The translations under genes were made by a program, and so were the position numbers. Shown here in pieces: positions 159-5,714 of a DNA stretch of 5,714 nt (positions are counted from its first letter, which is position 1; the number at the start of each line of letters is the position of its first letter). Source of the DNA: a virus; the IMG/VR virus record IMGVR_UViG_3300045988_000736, positions 1-5,714 of that record; one strand, given 5' to 3'. The notes under the pieces were generated by a model. It had not been told where the DNA came from and ran no database searches. It saw only the letters and a list, made by a program, of their open reading frames with translations.

Positions 159-1049
159 ATGGGTACACTTTTATCATGGATGCCGTACATCATGCAGGGG
201 CTTAGCCTGCTAACAAGCGTTGCAATGAGCTCAAACCAGAGCAGTGCAACAAGCAGTCAGAAAGCCGGAGAAGAAACAACCAGCGGAAGCGAAACAACAA
301 CCGGAAGTCTGACAGCACCACAACAAATTGGCACAACACAGATTGGAACACCAACAGGCATCACCACATACAACAATCAGGGTAGCGTAAACACGGCAAA
401 CGGCATGAGCTTTTTAAGCTCTATTATCAGTAATCTGATGAACGCAGGAAGCCAAGCAAGCGCAAAAAAGTACAACTCCGCAGAAGCAGCAGCAGAAAGA
501 GCATTCGCAAAGGAAATGCGCGGCACAGCATATCAGGACACTGTAAAGGACATGATCGCGGCGGGCATCAATCCAATACTAGCGGCAAACAACGGCGCTA
601 CAGCAACGCCAAGCGGAGCAAGTGCAAGCATCGGAACACAGCACTACAACCAGCAGAGCGCACAAGCGGCGGCAGTGTCAGCGATGTATGAATACGGCAA
701 TAACACGGCAGAGCTAGCAAACAGATACCTCGAACTAGCAAAAAAAAGCACAAGCGCAAAGCAATACCATTCTGCAAAGAGCTTTAATGAAGCAGCAAGC
801 AGTTTAGCACAATCAAGCGCAAAACAGGTAAGTAATTACAACTATGCGGCAAACAACTTGCTCGACGAGCTGGGAGACGCAGGAGACAAGCTAAGAGACG
901 CAGGAGACAAAGCAGCCGAATCAGCAAAAGGCGCAGGCAGAAAAGCAGCATCGGCCTTTAAAGACAGTTGGGAAAAAGGCGGAAAAAACATCACACCATA
1001 TCCGTCAATCAATCCTAATCAGATAATGGGCGCGTATAGAGGAGATTAA
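159..1049 (+). CDS. VP2-like minor capsid / DNA pilot protein (296 aa)
   Basis: ATG 159, long ORF directly downstream of VP1 as in gokushovirus synteny. Low-complexity A/S/Q/N/T/G-rich protein with the motif YQDTVKDMIAAGINPILAA, which resembles the conserved AG(L/I)NP region of microvirus pilot proteins. No SD directly upstream (see findings). Confidence 0.6.
   Translation: MGTLLSWMPYIMQGLSLLTSVAMSSNQSSATSSQKAGEETTSGSETTTGSLTAPQQIGTTQIGTPTGITTYNNQGSVNTANGMSFLSSIISNLMNAGSQASAKKYNSAEAAAERAFAKEMRGTAYQDTVKDMIAAGINPILAANNGATATPSGASASIGTQHYNQQSAQAAAVSAMYEYGNNTAELANRYLELAKKSTSAKQYHSAKSFNEAASSLAQSSAKQVSNYNYAANNLLDELGDAGDKLRDAGDKAAESAKGAGRKAASAFKDSWEKGGKNITPYPSINPNQIMGAYRGD
874..911 (+). repeat. Tandem ~21-bp direct repeat inside VP2 (gagacgcaggagacaa x2), encoding DAGDKLR/DAGDKAA
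   Basis: Copy 1 at 874-890, copy 2 at 895-911. Confidence 0.7.
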
Positions 1050-1051
1050 GT

Positions 1052-1225
1052 TTTCAACAGTTTCAACAGTTTCAACAGGTTTTCAACAAAGAAAACACAA
1101 AAAAAATTGGCCGTAAACGAACTTTCAACAGTTTCAACAAATTTTCAACAAAACTTTCAACAAAAAAGAAGGTGATAAATATGCGTATCAACGCTAAAAA
1201 TTAGACATTTCAACAGTTTAAACAG
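1052..1225. repeat. Iteron-like array of about 10 copies of the 9-bp motif TTTCAACA(G/A). Copies start at 1052, 1061, 1070, 1081, 1123, 1132, 1143, 1155 and 1208, plus a degenerate TTTAAACAG at 1217. Spacing within clusters is mostly 9-12 bp
   Basis: Direct reading of the VP2-Rep intergenic region; copies form clusters 1052-1089, 1123-1163 and 1208-1225. Confidence 0.85.
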
Positions 1226-1361
1226 GCCCTACTTCTACTACTACAACAAGTAATATATAGAACAAATCAAAATAAAAGCCCTTCCGCACAAAGTTAAGGT
1301 TTCCCAGCACAGGGACACCAAAGAGAAGAGCATAAAGAATAAAAGTATGCAGAGTAGAACG

Positions 1362-1390
1362 GGGGCCGTCAAACTACCGTTGACGGCCCC
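1362..1390 (+). other. Perfect hairpin: 11-bp stem GGGGCCGTCAA/TTGACGGCCCC with 7-nt loop
   Basis: Inverted repeat 1362-1372 / 1380-1390. Confidence 0.8.
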
Positions 1391-1392
1391 TT

Positions 1393-1426
1393 TGCGACAG
1401 CGTCCCCTAGCGCGGGGACTGTCGCA
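1393..1426 (+). other. Hairpin with 13 bp (TGCGACAG[CG]TCCCC / GGGGACTGTCGCA), a 2-nt bulge and a 6-nt loop
   Basis: Inverted repeat 1393-1407 / 1414-1426. Confidence 0.75.
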
Positions 1427-1443
1427 TCGATAGATACTAATGT

Positions 1444-1482
1444 ATTGCGCGCACGCGCGCGAAACGCGCACGCGCACGCAAT
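1444..1482 (+). other. Imperfect GC-rich hairpin (15 of 18 bp, AAA loop). It is built from two 15-nt strictly alternating purine-pyrimidine (CG/CA)n tracts and is Z-DNA-prone
   Basis: ATTGCGCGCACGCGCGCG-AAA-CGCGCACGCGCACGCAAT; alternating Pu/Py 1447-1461 and 1465-1479. Confidence 0.65.
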
Positions 1483-1548
1483 TTAAATCAAAAACGAAAG
1501 AGAGGTGTCAACTGGCGCAAGATAGACAAGTAAGCTTGCGCCAAACCT

Positions 1549-2544
1549 ATGCCATGTACAAATCCGAATGTTTTCCAGATGAACACGAAAAAACCAACCA
1601 TGTGGGGAAGCCTAAACTACCTAAAGAAACAGAACCTAGAACAAACCATCATGGACGGCGTAAAAAAAGGAAACCTCGCATTATTGCCATGCGGAAAATG
1701 TGAATACTGCCGAAAACAGATAGCAGACCAATGGGCAACGAGAATAGAACTAGAGGCACAAAAATGGAAAGATGTGATTTTCGTTACAATGACCTACGAC
1801 GAAGAACACATACCATACGGCGAGATTGTAAAAGGCTATCAAAGCATCCAATCACAAACAGTAAGCAAAAGAGACGTACAACTATTTTTAAAACGTCTCA
1901 GAAAAGCATACAAAAAGCCGATAAAATACTTCATAGCAGGAGAGTACGGAGACAGAACAAAAAGACCACACTACCACGGTATTTTTTTTGGACTAAAACC
2001 AGAGGATGGAGTATGGTACAAAAACCAGAAAGGCAACGCATACTTTAAAAGCGAATGGCTCACAAACCTATGGGGAAAAGGCTTTGTAGACTTTTCACCA
2101 GCGGCACCGGGTTCATATGCATACGTGGCACAGTACGTCAATAAAAAAGCAATCGGCGCAGAGCAGAGCGCAAAATACTGGATGCAAGGCCGTGAACCAG
2201 AGTTTAGAATCATGTCAAAAGGCATCGGGGAAGAGTACCTAAAAGAGCACATGAACGAGATACTAGAAACCGACAACATCACATGTGCAGGAGGACGGCA
2301 GAAAAGACCGCCAAGATACTTTGATAAGCTTCTTGATAAGGATACCAACAAAGACACTGAAAGCTATTTTAAGGCACATTCTGACGAGCTGAGAGCGGTA
2401 AGAGCCAAAAGACGAAGAAACGCAGTGCTTAGCCTTGTAAACTTAGAGCAAAACACCAGTGTTCCATACTCAAAATACCTAGAGATACAAAAAGAAAAAG
2501 ACAAGCAAAAACAAAAGTGGAGAGAGCCAAAAGAAACCTTATAA
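1549..2544 (+). CDS. Rolling-circle replication initiation protein (Microviridae VP4 / gene A-like, 331 aa)
   Basis: Zn-finger-like PCGKCEYCR near the N-terminus. RCR motif I FVTMTYDEEH, motif II PHYHGIFFG (HUH) and motif III YVAQYVNKK (catalytic Tyr pair). The exact start is uncertain (in-frame ATGs at 1549, 1579, 1600 and 1651), and none has a canonical SD. Confidence 0.9.
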   Translation: MPCTNPNVFQMNTKKPTMWGSLNYLKKQNLEQTIMDGVKKGNLALLPCGKCEYCRKQIADQWATRIELEAQKWKDVIFVTMTYDEEHIPYGEIVKGYQSIQSQTVSKRDVQLFLKRLRKAYKKPIKYFIAGEYGDRTKRPHYHGIFFGLKPEDGVWYKNQKGNAYFKSEWLTNLWGKGFVDFSPAAPGSYAYVAQYVNKKAIGAEQSAKYWMQGREPEFRIMSKGIGEEYLKEHMNEILETDNITCAGGRQKRPPRYFDKLLDKDTNKDTESYFKAHSDELRAVRAKRRRNAVLSLVNLEQNTSVPYSKYLEIQKEKDKQKQKWREPKETL

Positions 2545-2928: not shown

Positions 2929-3324
2929 ATGTCACGTGAAGAATACAGCTTATTTAATCAGAGCACCCACCAAATAAGTGAACACTTCAAAGTTAGAGAA
3001 TTTGCACAAAAAGACTTCCAATGCGACAAGGTAATTGTAGACACGGAACTTATAAACGTTTTGGAAGATATACGCGCACATTTCAACAAACCTGTGATTG
3101 TAACCTCTGGATACCGGACACCGGAATACAATGCAAAAATCGGCGGTGTAAAAAACTCACAACACACAAAGGGAACAGCGGCTGATATCAAAGTATCTGA
3201 AGTTCCGGCAAGATGGATACAAAAGTATCTAAAAGACAAATATCCGAATAAATACGGCATCGGAAGTTATTTAACTTTCACACACATCGACATAAGAGCT
3301 AAAAAAGCACGTTGGAGGGGCTAA
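2929..3324 (+). CDS. Peptidase M15 family (M15_3 / VanY-like D-Ala-D-Ala or L-Ala-D-Glu peptidase fold) cell-wall hydrolase, 131 aa. Putative endolysin or entry-associated peptidoglycan hydrolase
   Basis: Motifs SGYRTPEYN, SQHTKGTAADI (His...Asp zinc ligands) and FTHIDIR (second His); SD GAGGAGGAG 5 nt upstream of ATG 2929. Confidence 0.85.
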   Translation: MSREEYSLFNQSTHQISEHFKVREFAQKDFQCDKVIVDTELINVLEDIRAHFNKPVIVTSGYRTPEYNAKIGGVKNSQHTKGTAADIKVSEVPARWIQKYLKDKYPNKYGIGSYLTFTHIDIRAKKARWRG

Positions 3325-3327
3325 AAA

Positions 3328-3582
3328 ATGACACTGAAATTCTACAGTTTTCATGATGCAATCACGAATGGATACAGCAGTCCTTTCTTACAGCAAAACA
3401 GGGCGCAGGCAATCCGCACAGCAAAGTGGAAGGCAAACGAATCAAAACTGCAGGAAATCGAGGACATCAGCCTGATGGAGCTGGGCGACTTCAACACCGA
3501 AACCGGCGAAATGTTCGGAGCGAAACCGAACCAGCTGTGCAAGCTGGTAGACCTTAAGGAGACATACAATGTTAAATCCTAA
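3328..3582 (+). CDS. Hypothetical protein, 84 aa (MTLKFYSFHDAITNGYSSPF...)
   Basis: SD GGAGGGG (3314-3320) 7 nt upstream of ATG 3328; overlaps the peptidase stop; no recognisable domain. Confidence 0.6.
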   Translation: MTLKFYSFHDAITNGYSSPFLQQNRAQAIRTAKWKANESKLQEIEDISLMELGDFNTETGEMFGAKPNQLCKLVDLKETYNVKS

Positions 3583-3988
3583 CATTCTGGTACGGTACTA
3601 CGGAGTACCAACCGAAAGAGTGACAAGCAAAACCGGCAGCGAAACCGCACCAACGTGGAAAGCGGTAAAGCGACCGAACGGAACAACGGACTACATCCGA
3701 CAACCGGACGAAAATGTATACGAAAAAATTCAGAAAGCGGGCGAGGGATACGACCTTGCAAGCGCAATCGCGAGACTGGAAGCCGGAGATTTTTCCATCA
3801 AAGCAAAGAGCACAATCTACACCGAGGGCACACCACTGGAAAACCTGCCTAAGGACATCGTAAACATGCACGAAACGGCACAGAAGGCAGCGGAAACGCT
3901 GGAAGAGCTGAAACAGACACAGCAGACCGAACAGCCGAAGCCGGAAGAAAAAAAGAAAGAGGTGAAGCAGAACGAACCGGAACAGTGA
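3569..3988 (+). CDS. Hypothetical protein, 139 aa, with a charged K/E-rich C-terminal tail. It is a candidate internal scaffolding (VP3-like) protein by size and its position immediately upstream of VP1
   Basis: SD AAGGAG (3556-3561) 7 nt upstream of ATG 3569. It overlaps the preceding ORF by 14 nt in another frame. The functional assignment rests only on position and size. Confidence 0.65.
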   Translation: MLNPNILVRYYGVPTERVTSKTGSETAPTWKAVKRPNGTTDYIRQPDENVYEKIQKAGEGYDLASAIARLEAGDFSIKAKSTIYTEGTPLENLPKDIVNMHETAQKAAETLEELKQTQQTEQPKPEEKKKEVKQNEPEQ

Positions 3989-4013
3989 AAGCCATTTCGC
4001 GCAAGTGCCGCGA

Positions 4014-5666
4014 ATGGAAAGACCGCGGTCAAAATTTGATCGCGGTCATCAGCTCCTGACGACCATCAACGAGGGCGAACTGGTACCAATCTATATGGAT
4101 GAAGTACTACCGGGTGACACGGCACGGGTACAGCTTAACGGGCTTATCAGAATGAGCACTCCTATCTATCCTATCATGGATAACTGTTACATGGACACAT
4201 ATTTCTTCTTTGTGCCTGCAAGACTTTTGTGGGAACACTTTGAAAATATGTTCGGTGAAAACGACACCAACTATTGGGCAGAAGATACGGAGTATTCCAC
4301 TCCAAAATGCACCATCGGCGGCACAAGCGGCCTTGCAAATGGTTCCATCGGTGACTATTTCGGACTGCCGACACAGGTAAATAACGCGCTGGAAGTAAAC
4401 GCATTGCCTGCACGAGCATACTGCAAAATCTACAACGAGTGGTTCCGAGATGAAAATCTTGAAGCGCCGCTTATGTTGGGATACAAAAAGACGGATGACG
4501 GCGGCACAAATGCAGACGCAAGCAAAGTAACCGAAAATGCAAACGCACTCGAACAGACGACCAACACCAACGAAGCAATGTTGTATGCAATGAAACCGGC
4601 AAGGGCGGGCAAGTTCCACGATTATTTTACATCTTGTCTTCCTTCACCGTTGAAAAATGCAGAACCGGTAACGCTGCCAATGACAGGAGCAGCAGGAGTA
4701 TATGCATACTCAGACAGAGAGCTAAAAAATAAAACAGAAGCAACCATAAACAGCTTTACAAACCAAACGGACTTCGCAGGAACAACGAATCAAAGGCTTT
4801 ACGACACAATCCTGTGGGCAAATGAGCCAGAACAATTATACGTAGGAAACGGAACAGCAAAAGAACAAATGTGGTTGGGCGCAGACCTGAGCAAAGTAAC
4901 CTCAACAACGATCAACGACTTGCGACAGGCCATAGCGCTGCAGCACATCTTCGAGAGCGATGCCAGAAACGGCACGAGGTACAGAGAATTCCTTTCCGGG
5001 ACGTGGGGCGTAACAAGTCCGGACAGCCGTCTGCAAATTCCTGAATACATCGGCGGGCAACGCATTGCAATCAATGTGAATCAGGTGGTGCAGACCAGCC
5101 AGACGGACACGACGACCGGACAGGCACTGGGCAACACGGCGGCATACAGCCTAACGACTTGTTCAAAGCAGATGGCAGACTATGCAGCTACGGAGTACGG
5201 CTATATCATCGGGCTGGCGGTGGTACGAGTAGAACACAGTTACCAACAGGGTCTTGGAACCAAATGGACGCGCGGCGGTCGATTCACGTACTACGACCCG
5301 AGATTAGCAGCACTAGGAGAACAGCCAGTATACAACAGAGAAATCTACGCAGACGGAAGCGAAAAAGATAGCCAGATTTTTGGCTATCAGGAGGCTTGGG
5401 CGGATTACCGATACAAGCCTTCCTACGTAACCGGAGAAATGAGGTCAAACTATCAGACGTCTTTGGATGCATGGCACTATGCAGACGACTATGACAAGCT
5501 GCCGACACTATCGGCAGAGTGGATTCAGGAAGGACGTGAAAACATCGATAGAACTATTGCGGTAACGTCCGCAGTAAGTCACCAATTCTTATGTGATTTC
5601 TGGTTCAACGAAACGTGGTACCGGGAAATGCCAATCTACAGTATCCCGGGCATCGAAAGAATTTAA
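4014..5666 (+). CDS. Major capsid protein VP1 (Microviridae F-protein family, about 550 aa)
   Basis: Conserved N-terminal region RSKFDRGHQLLTT...PIYMDEVLPGDT and DTYFFFVPARLLW, typical of gokushovirus VP1. ATG 4014 is preferred; the ORF track begins at an in-frame GTG at 4005. Stop TAA is at 5664-5666. Confidence 0.93.
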   Translation: MERPRSKFDRGHQLLTTINEGELVPIYMDEVLPGDTARVQLNGLIRMSTPIYPIMDNCYMDTYFFFVPARLLWEHFENMFGENDTNYWAEDTEYSTPKCTIGGTSGLANGSIGDYFGLPTQVNNALEVNALPARAYCKIYNEWFRDENLEAPLMLGYKKTDDGGTNADASKVTENANALEQTTNTNEAMLYAMKPARAGKFHDYFTSCLPSPLKNAEPVTLPMTGAAGVYAYSDRELKNKTEATINSFTNQTDFAGTTNQRLYDTILWANEPEQLYVGNGTAKEQMWLGADLSKVTSTTINDLRQAIALQHIFESDARNGTRYREFLSGTWGVTSPDSRLQIPEYIGGQRIAINVNQVVQTSQTDTTTGQALGNTAAYSLTTCSKQMADYAATEYGYIIGLAVVRVEHSYQQGLGTKWTRGGRFTYYDPRLAALGEQPVYNREIYADGSEKDSQIFGYQEAWADYRYKPSYVTGEMRSNYQTSLDAWHYADDYDKLPTLSAEWIQEGRENIDRTIAVTSAVSHQFLCDFWFNETWYREMPIYSIPGIERI

Positions 5667-5714
5667 AAAATGTACAAAACACACAAAAAAGAAAGCTGAA
5701 ACAACAAAAAAAAT
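5620..5714. repeat. Second copy of the 95-nt terminal repeat (identical to 1..95)
   Basis: Exact identity with window start. Confidence 0.95.

Follow-up and report, generated by a model that had tools for sequence, protein, structure and literature searches.

The 499-nucleotide (nt) interval that separates the VP2 and Rep genes of the gokushovirus record IMGVR_UViG_3300045988_000736 (positions 1050–1548 of the window, i.e. the whole 5,714-nt stretch analysed) is probably a replication control region composed of three modules: a copy of a bacterial origin of the oriC type (module A, 1051–1276), an optional hairpin cassette (module B, 1277–1481) and a hairpin proposed to serve the phage initiator Rep (module C, 1513–1543; Table 1). 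The modules were resolved by comparing the window with some 150 related microvirus contigs and with 120 bacterial chromosomes. What is unusual about the interval is its content, a captured or mimicked origin-unwinding module combined with a subfamily hairpin that is inverted relative to the genes, rather than its length. This is apparently the first single-stranded DNA (ssDNA) phage with a full copy of the bacterial origin-unwinding module; in the literature searched, no paper was found that links microviruses to DnaA or oriC.

The basal unwinding system of bacteria comprises a DnaA box (often tandem), a GC-rich spacer of 0–16 base pairs (bp), at least three DnaA-trios (3'-GAT-5') and an AT-rich segment (PMC8287927; PMC7561715); the DnaA-trio of C. 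difficile is given as CACCTACTACTATTACTACTA (PMC7561715). Module A has an equivalent for each element. A box was taken to differ from that of the species at no more than two positions and to adjoin the trios, with up to four mismatches allowed in a second box, a tandem pair being common. The tandem boxes at 1207–1224 have one and two mismatches, respectively, to the Clostridia-type box TTTTCAACA, qualifying as DnaA boxes of that type, and are equivalent to the TT(A/T)TCCACA and TTTC(C/A)ACA pair of bacterial oriC; measured against the E. coli consensus, the pair falls outside the strict form of the rule. They are followed by a GC cluster of the typical length (about 4 bp), by a trio run that exceeds three repeats and has the central A on the strand opposite the box consensus, and by an AT-rich segment, as in the bacterial matches described below. 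A regular expression for the trio run matched 66 of 72 relatives with Rep identities of 79–99%, the remainder being 1-nt variants, and all relatives share a layout of two TTTCAACA-type arrays, a tandem pair, 0–4 nt of GC, five to six CTA repeats and CAACAAGT(T)AATATATA. Array 2 is kept in the IMG/VR relatives as well as in all four from GenBank, and the stem of the mini-hairpin at 1183–1194 shows a compensatory change (GCGT/ACGC versus ACGT/ACGT). Since the trios, spacer and AT-rich segment are conserved, unwinding, and not mere binding, appears to have been selected.

An earlier reading of this DNA made without database searches (the sequence-only reading) had noted iterons in the interval. 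The repeats are real, with nine exact copies of TTTCAACA and one variant in 1052–1224 and a single further exact copy elsewhere in the genome; box matches with at most one mismatch number 16 genome-wide against 7.7 expected, a count reached by none of 200 shuffles. As phage-specific iterons, however, they were misread, since they match host-type DnaA boxes instead. Between the two arrays a palindrome is kept in most clades (TTCGTCATAATGACGAA in L004-type relatives, GTTGCACAAA..TTTGTGCA in L312-type relatives) and is degenerate in the window (1100–1121); it may be the site for a second, dimeric protein. The block of L004-type relatives opens with AATGTGGAAAACTTGAGTTTTCAACAC, an inverted box pair (TGTGGAAAA / TTTTCAACA), missing in the window clade, that could fold in ssDNA into a hairpin with a DnaA-box stem. 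Such a pair is reminiscent of the R6K 'A site' hairpin, at which priming is DnaA dependent (the ABC primosome). A XerCD dif-like integration site near TAATATATAG, an idea taken from PMC7062461, was considered and set aside; the segment is explained as the AT-rich end of module A, and no prophage context was seen.

The correspondence with chromosomal origins was examined by scanning one genome of each of 185,579 bacterial and archaeal species with the pattern TTTCMACR-N0-4-(CTA)4C (trio part CTACTACTACTAC). At least 120 matches were found, where by our own estimate roughly 5 are expected by chance. Among the matches listed, 113 of 120 directly follow dnaA and/or directly precede dnaN, the elements being arranged as dnaA, boxes, trios, AT-rich segment, dnaN; Pfam identified six flanking open reading frames (ORFs), taken from four loci, as DnaA and DnaN. 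The phage block does not share this chromosomal location, lying between VP2 and Rep of a 5.6-kb microvirus. Applied to 2.9 million viral contigs, the pattern matched 118 times, and about 112 of these matches are microviruses of 4.3–6.3 kb. A few of the 'viral' matches (the 38-kb contig L316, L374, L376 and L353) have no microvirus Rep and many DnaA boxes, and resemble origin regions of bacteria, or other replicons, that were entered as viral.

The box dialect points to the host. In most phyla the trio-proximal box is TTTCCACA, whereas TTTCAACA takes this position in 23 of the 120 bacterial origins among the matches listed, and all 15 of these for which a title was seen are Clostridia (Oscillospiraceae, Ruminococcus, Acutalibacteraceae, Faecalibacterium and Christensenella), mostly Oscillospirales. 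Tandem TTTTCAACA arrays like array 1 occur in the dnaA–dnaN spacers of Ruminococcus and Oscillospiraceae metagenome-assembled genomes, and in four origins (L201, L206, L209 and L309) they are mixed with TTTTCCACA, as in the phage. Window positions 1050–1275 align collinearly with such Clostridia origins at 65–67% over 200–220 nt, and the origin L201 (TTTTCAACAGTTTCAACACCCCCTACTACTACTAC) and the phage relative L006 (TTTCAACAGTTTCAACAGGCCCTACTACTACTACTAC) agree nearly base for base. The same TTTTCAACA/TTTTCCACA boxes recur across phages whose Rep proteins are 28–100% identical, so the repeat does not change with the initiator as it does in iteron origins. In one clade of 4.65–4.8 kb from IMG/VR (L338, L339, L381 and L385), four to five perfect TTATCCACA boxes precede the trios instead; members of this clade also have tandem TTTCCACA boxes, (CTA)5-6, no CAACAAGT motif and a T-rich coding strand, which suggests that the clade infects another host and perhaps acquired its origin block independently. 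With the boxes unchanged at Rep identities of 28–45% and TTATCCACA present in one clade, the repeats appear to be set by the DnaA-box consensus and by the host rather than by the phage Rep. On the TTTTCAACA/TTTCAACA dialect, the host of the window phage is likely a member of the Oscillospirales (Ruminococcus, Oscillospiraceae, Faecalibacterium or relatives).

Module A is mobile relative to the genes. In the window clade it lies upstream of Rep in the gene orientation; in L034, whose Rep is 81% identical, the whole block is inverted and placed just after the Rep stop codon. Among 83 further contigs the block is inverted downstream of Rep in 56, downstream in the same orientation in 5 and upstream in the same orientation in 16, with no Rep match in the remaining 6; it adjoins the Rep gene in every arrangement with a Rep match. 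The occurrence of the block in either orientation and on either side of Rep, when the hairpin and cassette are strand-locked, fits a function in double-stranded DNA.

Module C is a perfect hairpin whose stem covaries (TGGCGCAAG, CGGCACAAG, TGGCCCAAG) around an invariant loop. Across clades, the perfect hairpins comprise 58 distinct forms, their stems fall into at least seven unrelated families and every loop reads xCTTG(A/T)x. In 113 of 127 distinct arrangements scanned the hairpin lies 46–285 nt past the AT-rich end of module A, irrespective of block orientation. Eight control genomes defined the feature as a single, perfect, non-coding hairpin with a stem of at least 8 bp and the xCTTG(A/T)x loop, and the window carries a hairpin of this kind. 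The cultured gokushoviruses phiMH2K, phiCPAR39 and SpV4 have exactly one each (loops GGACCCTACTTGTTGTAA, TCTACTTGAT and ATTACTTGTTATA), as do five of seven uncultured block-free gokushoviruses in which it was sought. The phiX174 record annotates the origin at 4306, within CAACTTG↓ATATT (the arrow follows the G after which A protein cuts); with the 30-nt phiX174 origin CAACTTGATATTAATAACACTATAGACCAC the window shares the core only, in TTACTTG↓TCTAT and TTACTTG↓TTGTAG (arrows at the equivalent point), both on the non-coding strand. Because it is shared across gokushoviruses, including the controls, and has a phiX174-like core, the module C hairpin is the best candidate for the Rep nick site of the subfamily. 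The Rep ATG (1549) has no adjacent Shine–Dalgarno sequence; a strong one ends at 1507, 5' of the 31-nt hairpin, and this layout is kept in the window clade and in the 80% clade, the GGTGTCA(A/C)C flank being kept also in the 40% clade. Folding of the hairpin in the mRNA could bring the Shine–Dalgarno sequence near the start codon, coupling Rep translation to the hairpin.

The strand that carries the nick-like motif differs between the window and the controls. In all eight hairpin-bearing controls (three cultured) TACTTG is found on the coding strand, the presumed virion strand, whereas the window and 78 gut block-bearing genomes have it on the non-coding strand; one other genome scored with a coding-strand motif, which was judged spurious. 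In addition, the reverse complement of 1239–1249 (TACTTGTTGTA) is identical to the hairpin-loop 11-mer of phiMH2K (L395, about 3313–3323), and the non-coding strand of the window thus has a pair of origin-like motifs some 280 nt from each other. When singleton substitutions in Rep and VP1 are read on that strand, C>T (71 versus 46) and G>T (34 versus 5) are in excess, although this asymmetry could result from selection against T. The coding strand of the window is 37% A and 17% T (AT skew +0.37), with Rep third positions at.45 A and.12 T and an intergenic region that is alike. An excess of A over T is found in all block-bearing gut clades, and third positions are T-rich in phiX174, phiCPAR39 and SpV4. 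An A-rich bias is seen in phiMH2K and one Antarctic microvirus as well. As a decisive marker of the packaged strand, base composition was discarded, since the coding strand of phiMH2K has a like excess of A with no inversion of the motif. The motif strand, the strand of the CG/CA helix described below and the substitution asymmetry agree in fitting the non-coding strand as the ssDNA form. We consider it possible, if on balance doubtful, that the lineage is negative-sense, i.e. that Rep nicks, displaces and packages the complement of the mRNA strand and that the captured host origin lets DnaA open the duplex. A caveat is that the trio-adjacent TACTTGTTG motif lies on the coding strand in most related clades.

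Module B, the cassette, contains the three GC-rich hairpins and the CG tract (in full, a CG/CA tract) recorded by the sequence-only reading, and all of these are present (1362–1390, 1393–1426 and 1445–1481), perfect or nearly so; they form not the conserved core of the interval but a dispensable and relocatable unit. About 20 microvirus loci were usable for comparison, the first broad cassette pattern having mostly matched unrelated GC-rich phages. The cassette is missing in four relatives whose Rep is 96–98% identical (L005, L007, L069 and L071) and partial in L010, L066 and L028. Where present it occupies one of three positions: between the AT-rich segment and the hairpin (the window clade and KX513864), 5 nt past the VP2 stop codon, where it replaces the canonical intrinsic terminator of sister genomes (the L019 clade), or after Rep and the hairpin (the 40% clade and MG945781/MZ821031). 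Its orientation relative to the genes is constant in all three. Pairing is kept through compensatory changes, with 98.7% of cells paired and a covariation score above that of all 500 shuffles; hairpin 1, with its 11-bp perfect stem, has an interior that is wholly different between clades, yet always paired. The CG/CA hairpin forms an uninterrupted helix of 16–20 bp only on the non-coding strand, via G–T pairs, and on the coding, mRNA-sense strand is broken by three to four A–C mismatches in every one of the 21 copies, which come from three clades.

Single-strand (complementary-strand) origins of rolling-circle plasmids are orientation dependent, position independent and dispensable. The cassette has these three properties, and by this analogy we tentatively suggest that it could be a single-strand-origin-like signal, a priming site on ssDNA, though we would put this at somewhat less than an even chance. 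In the ssoA class of such origins, a CS-6 sequence (TAGCGT) stands in a hairpin loop and is accompanied by RS_B. The hairpin-2 loop of the window, TAGCGC, is near TAGCGT, but the loop is not kept between clades (the window clade has TAGCGC or TAACGC, the L019 clade TACGC and the 40% clade AGCTCAT or AATCAT), and an ssoA-type assignment on CS-6 was rejected.

From this anatomy we infer a series of steps on the replicative form in which host DnaA would bind the box arrays of module A, spread along the trio strand by polymerisation and melt 1244–1276, the AT-rich segment. The opening would expose the neighbouring hairpin to Rep, an HUH nuclease that requires ssDNA for nicking, and/or provide an entry point for the host helicase and primosome; the cassette may act as an ssDNA hairpin signal for complementary-strand priming. 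Several observations weigh against this proposal. The tandem boxes differ from the E. coli consensus TTATCCACA at three and four positions and fit only the Clostridia dialect (relatives with TTTTCAACA in the trio-proximal position have two mismatches), and 97% of phage boxes have an A where the consensus strongly prefers C. Adjacency of block and hairpin is not obligatory, since in L034 the Rep gene lies between the two and they are 1 kb apart. The block is absent from the three cultured gokushoviruses above and from the seven uncultured ones examined; as these replicate without it, it must be an add-on that is not universal in gokushoviruses. The strand evidence from the cassette is mixed, hairpin 2 of one clade having plus-strand G–T pairs, and a literature search found no report of the module C hairpin, or of a nick-site role for it in any gokushovirus.

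Other explanations share parts of this evidence. The repeats might be binding sites for Rep itself, as in iteron plasmids or the pMV158 'bind' element, within a double-strand origin that depends on Rep and not on DnaA. The block always adjoins the Rep gene, the hairpin flank GTGTCAAC resembles the iteron GTTTCAAC, and the CTACTACTACGAC of many relatives matches TACTACGAC, which we take to be the pMV158 nick sequence. Nevertheless, we consider Rep iterons very unlikely: the repeat is constant over the whole range of Rep identity, it is a perfect TTATCCACA in one clade, and the whole arrangement is found between dnaA and dnaN in the 113 bacterial loci noted above. A pMV158-type nick site in the (CTA)n run was rejected, as the window lacks the CG of the motif and the block inverts relative to the genes, which is unexpected for a strand-specific site. 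Use of the boxes as a datA-like DnaA decoy that stops or re-times host initiation, or of DnaA as a transcription factor for Rep, in either case with no opening of the duplex, would be in keeping with some 10 boxes per genome multiplied by many replicative-form copies, with boxes directly upstream of Rep in the window clade and with the failure to find a separate sigma-70 promoter for Rep. Titration needs boxes only, yet the tandem orientation, the 0–4-nt GC spacer, at least five trios and the AT-rich segment, which have relevance for unwinding alone, are kept at 30% Rep identity, and in most clades the block is inverted downstream of Rep; a decoy or transcriptional role is on these grounds unlikely.

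The block could alternatively be a self-sufficient mini-oriC that supports theta replication in step with the host in a Rep-independent carrier state. Compared with bacterial origins it is complete over some 200 nt, and it is found in either orientation at two positions, and gokushoviruses persist as non-integrating circular episomes (PMC7062461). We nonetheless regard this as quite unlikely, given that block and Rep hairpin stay close together in nearly all genomes, which points to a joint action with rolling-circle replication, that no partition function is present and that a further cluster of boxes, upstream of dnaA, is usually required by the bipartite origins of Firmicutes (PMC7561715). 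A role of the cassette or of the interval as RNA, as a terminator or 3'-end stabiliser of the VP1–VP2 transcript or as a Rep leader, appears similarly improbable. In its favour, the cassette of one clade starts at the intrinsic-terminator site of sister genomes, that of the 40% clade follows the Rep stop codon, and a Shine–Dalgarno, hairpin and AUG layout precedes Rep. The sequence-only reading had likened the interval to the phiX174 H–A region (terminator plus gene A promoter), a comparison that does not hold: neither a sigma-70 promoter for Rep nor an intrinsic terminator (a GC-rich hairpin plus U-tract on the transcribed strand) is predicted on the + strand of 1050–1548, hairpin 1 being followed by TTTGCG and no U-tract. 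The A–C mismatches of the CG hairpin on the mRNA-sense strand in every copy and the loss of the cassette from relatives with 98% Rep identity argue further against an RNA role, and an Rfam scan of the window (E values up to 10) returned no relevant family. A role of the interval in DnaA-assisted replication is the reading that we favour.

The sequence-only reading was correct that a region of about 500 nt between VP2 and Rep lacks a credible ORF: the interval of 499 nt (8.9% of the 5619-nt circle) has no conserved ORF and no Pfam match. The longest ORF (78 residues, minus strand, within the cassette) is frame-broken in L006, L014, L070 and L002 and missing in cassette-free relatives; an 87-residue + strand ORF is not conserved; and a 7-codon mini-ORF with a Shine–Dalgarno sequence (1181–1204) has lost its ATG in the 80% clade, the ATG being missing in KX513876. 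A conserved protein gene, which that reading had named as counter-evidence, was accordingly not found, candidate ORFs being broken or absent in relatives. A scan of the window for tRNA and tmRNA returned nothing relevant. The interval folds far more stably than its shuffles, with z values of −5.9 (+ RNA), −7.9 (− RNA) and −5.65 (+ DNA). The description 'unusually long' needs qualification: the VP2–Rep gap spans 115–517 nt across the 72 relatives, with a mode near 337 nt, so the length is ordinary for the clade, and the window falls in the upper length mode because it carries the optional cassette of roughly 230 nt; gaps of 136–200 nt in four relatives are artefacts of an over-extended VP2 ORF. 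In related microviruses the same modules recur, and in most related clades they sit downstream of Rep. As to the suggested origin, packaging or regulatory hub, the conserved TACTTG hairpin and the oriC-like block support an origin or regulatory role, and no evidence for packaging was seen; the hub interpretation is broadly right and non-specific.

The record has an exact 95-nt terminal redundancy (1–95 = 5620–5714), from which the genome is taken to be a circle of 5619 nt. All annotated genes are on the + strand (Table 1), and the nearest GenBank record is Gokushovirus WZ-2015a (KT264784, human faeces, 93.8% identity). The strongest sigma-70-type promoter of the genome lies just past Rep at 2595–2638 (TTGACT-17-TATAAT, 11/12), preceded by the box-like TTTTTCAACG at 2593–2602, and probably drives the small ORFs, peptidase, VP5, VP3 and VP1. 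A canonical intrinsic terminator, AGCCGGGCAAAGACCCGGCT followed by ATTTTTT, is located between VP1 and VP2 at 131–150, 8 nt before the VP2 start. The M15-family peptidase, a candidate lysis enzyme, is present too in the cultured Roseobacter phage CRPss-155. One contig in the comparison set (L027/L379, IMGVR_UViG_3300045988_004182, 10,711 nt, Rep 80% identical to that of the window) is about twice genome length and could represent either a concatemer or a chimera formed from two gokushovirus genomes.

Table 1. Features of the VP2–Rep interval and genes of the window
Feature	Position	Strand	Details
DnaA-box-like array 1	1051–1088	+	four boxes, TTTTCAACA, GTTTCAACA (twice), TTTTCAACA; spacings 9, 9 and 11 nt
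Spacer between arrays 1 and 2	1089–1121	.	in other clades, palindrome TTCGTCAnnnTGACGAA, or GTTGCACAAA..TTTGTGCA
DnaA-box-like array 2	1122–1162	+	four boxes; spacings 9, 11 and 12 nt
Conserved spacer	1163–1206	+	mini-hairpin GCGT-ATCA-ACGC at 1183–1194
Two tandem trio-adjacent boxes	1207–1224	+	ATTTCAACA (1207–1215), GTTTAAACA (1216–1224)
GC-rich spacer	1225–1228	.	GGCC; GGCC, CCCC or GCCC at the equivalent place in bacterial origins
DnaA-trio run	1229–1243	-	+ strand CTA CTT CTA CTA CTA; - strand 3'-GAT GAA GAT GAT GAT-5'
AT-rich segment, candidate unwinding element	1244–1276	.	about 80% A+T; starts with phage-specific CAACAAGTAATATATAG
Hairpin cassette 'S'	1277–1481	-	small hairpin 1298–1319; hairpin 1 1362–1390; hairpin 2 1393–1426; CG/CA hairpin 1445–1481
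Shine–Dalgarno-like sequence and conserved flank	1496–1512	+	GAAAGAGAGGTG (GAGAGGTG, ends 1507), flank GGTGTCAAC; immediately 5' of the hairpin
Origin-like hairpin	1513–1543	-	9-bp perfect stem TGGCGCAAG/CTTGCGCCA; loop ATAGACAAGTAAG on the coding strand, CTTACTTGTCTAT on the non-coding strand
VP2	159–1049	+	
Rep/VP4	1549–2544	+	HUH motif HYHGIFF; YVAQYVNKK
Two small ORFs		+	listed between Rep and the M15 peptidase
M15 peptidase	2929–3324	+	relatives annotated likewise
VP5	3328–3582	+	
VP3	3569–3988	+	
VP1	4005–5666	+	

If the proposal is correct, a phage that replicates by a rolling circle recruits DnaA, the master initiator of its host; if the negative-sense reading also holds, the lineage packages the antisense strand. 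The box dialect offers a sequence-based host prediction for abundant, uncultured human-gut gokushoviruses, the hosts of which have long been unsettled, and the sister clade with TTATCCACA boxes points to another host. The TACTTG-loop hairpin defines a candidate Rep origin for the whole subfamily, and the block of roughly 230 nt is a substrate for DnaA assays in organisms whose origins are poorly studied.

The closest parallel to module A is the bacterial basal unwinding system itself, i.e. DnaA-boxes 6/7 and trios of B. subtilis incC, and C. difficile oriC2, with which it shares tandem boxes in the same orientation, a GC spacer of about 4 nt, at least three trios, an AT-rich segment and further arrays upstream. 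In contrast to these origins, the phage block adjoins an HUH Rep gene in a 5.6-kb ssDNA phage and not dnaA–dnaN, is followed by CAACAAGT(T)AATATA and a Rep-type hairpin, and can be inverted and moved across Rep. Module C resembles the phiX174 viral-strand origin (CAACTTG↓ATATTAATAAC) in its ACTTG core followed by A/T-rich sequence, and the two phages have homologous two-tyrosine HUH initiators; the gokushovirus motif, however, is in the loop of a perfect intergenic hairpin and not within the initiator gene, and that of the window is on the strand complementary to the genes. The combination of a nick hairpin (conserved loop, variable stem) with a separate, dispensable and strand-locked cassette is shared with the origins of Gram-positive rolling-circle plasmids, although the phage has neither the conserved ssoA landmarks nor a plasmid-type Rep. 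The complementary-strand origin of phiX174 is a PriA site and that of G4 consists of three hairpins recognised by primase; a GC-rich hairpin run in a microvirus intergenic region is common to these and the cassette, but the sequences are not similar, and the cassette is optional and pairs best on the non-coding strand. Mobile elements that recruit host DnaA through DnaA boxes are represented by the P1 oriR, pSC101, F and RK2 origins. Whereas those origins pair a few boxes with the iterons of their own initiator, the phage copies the whole array, trios and unwinding element, and its own initiator is a rolling-circle nuclease.

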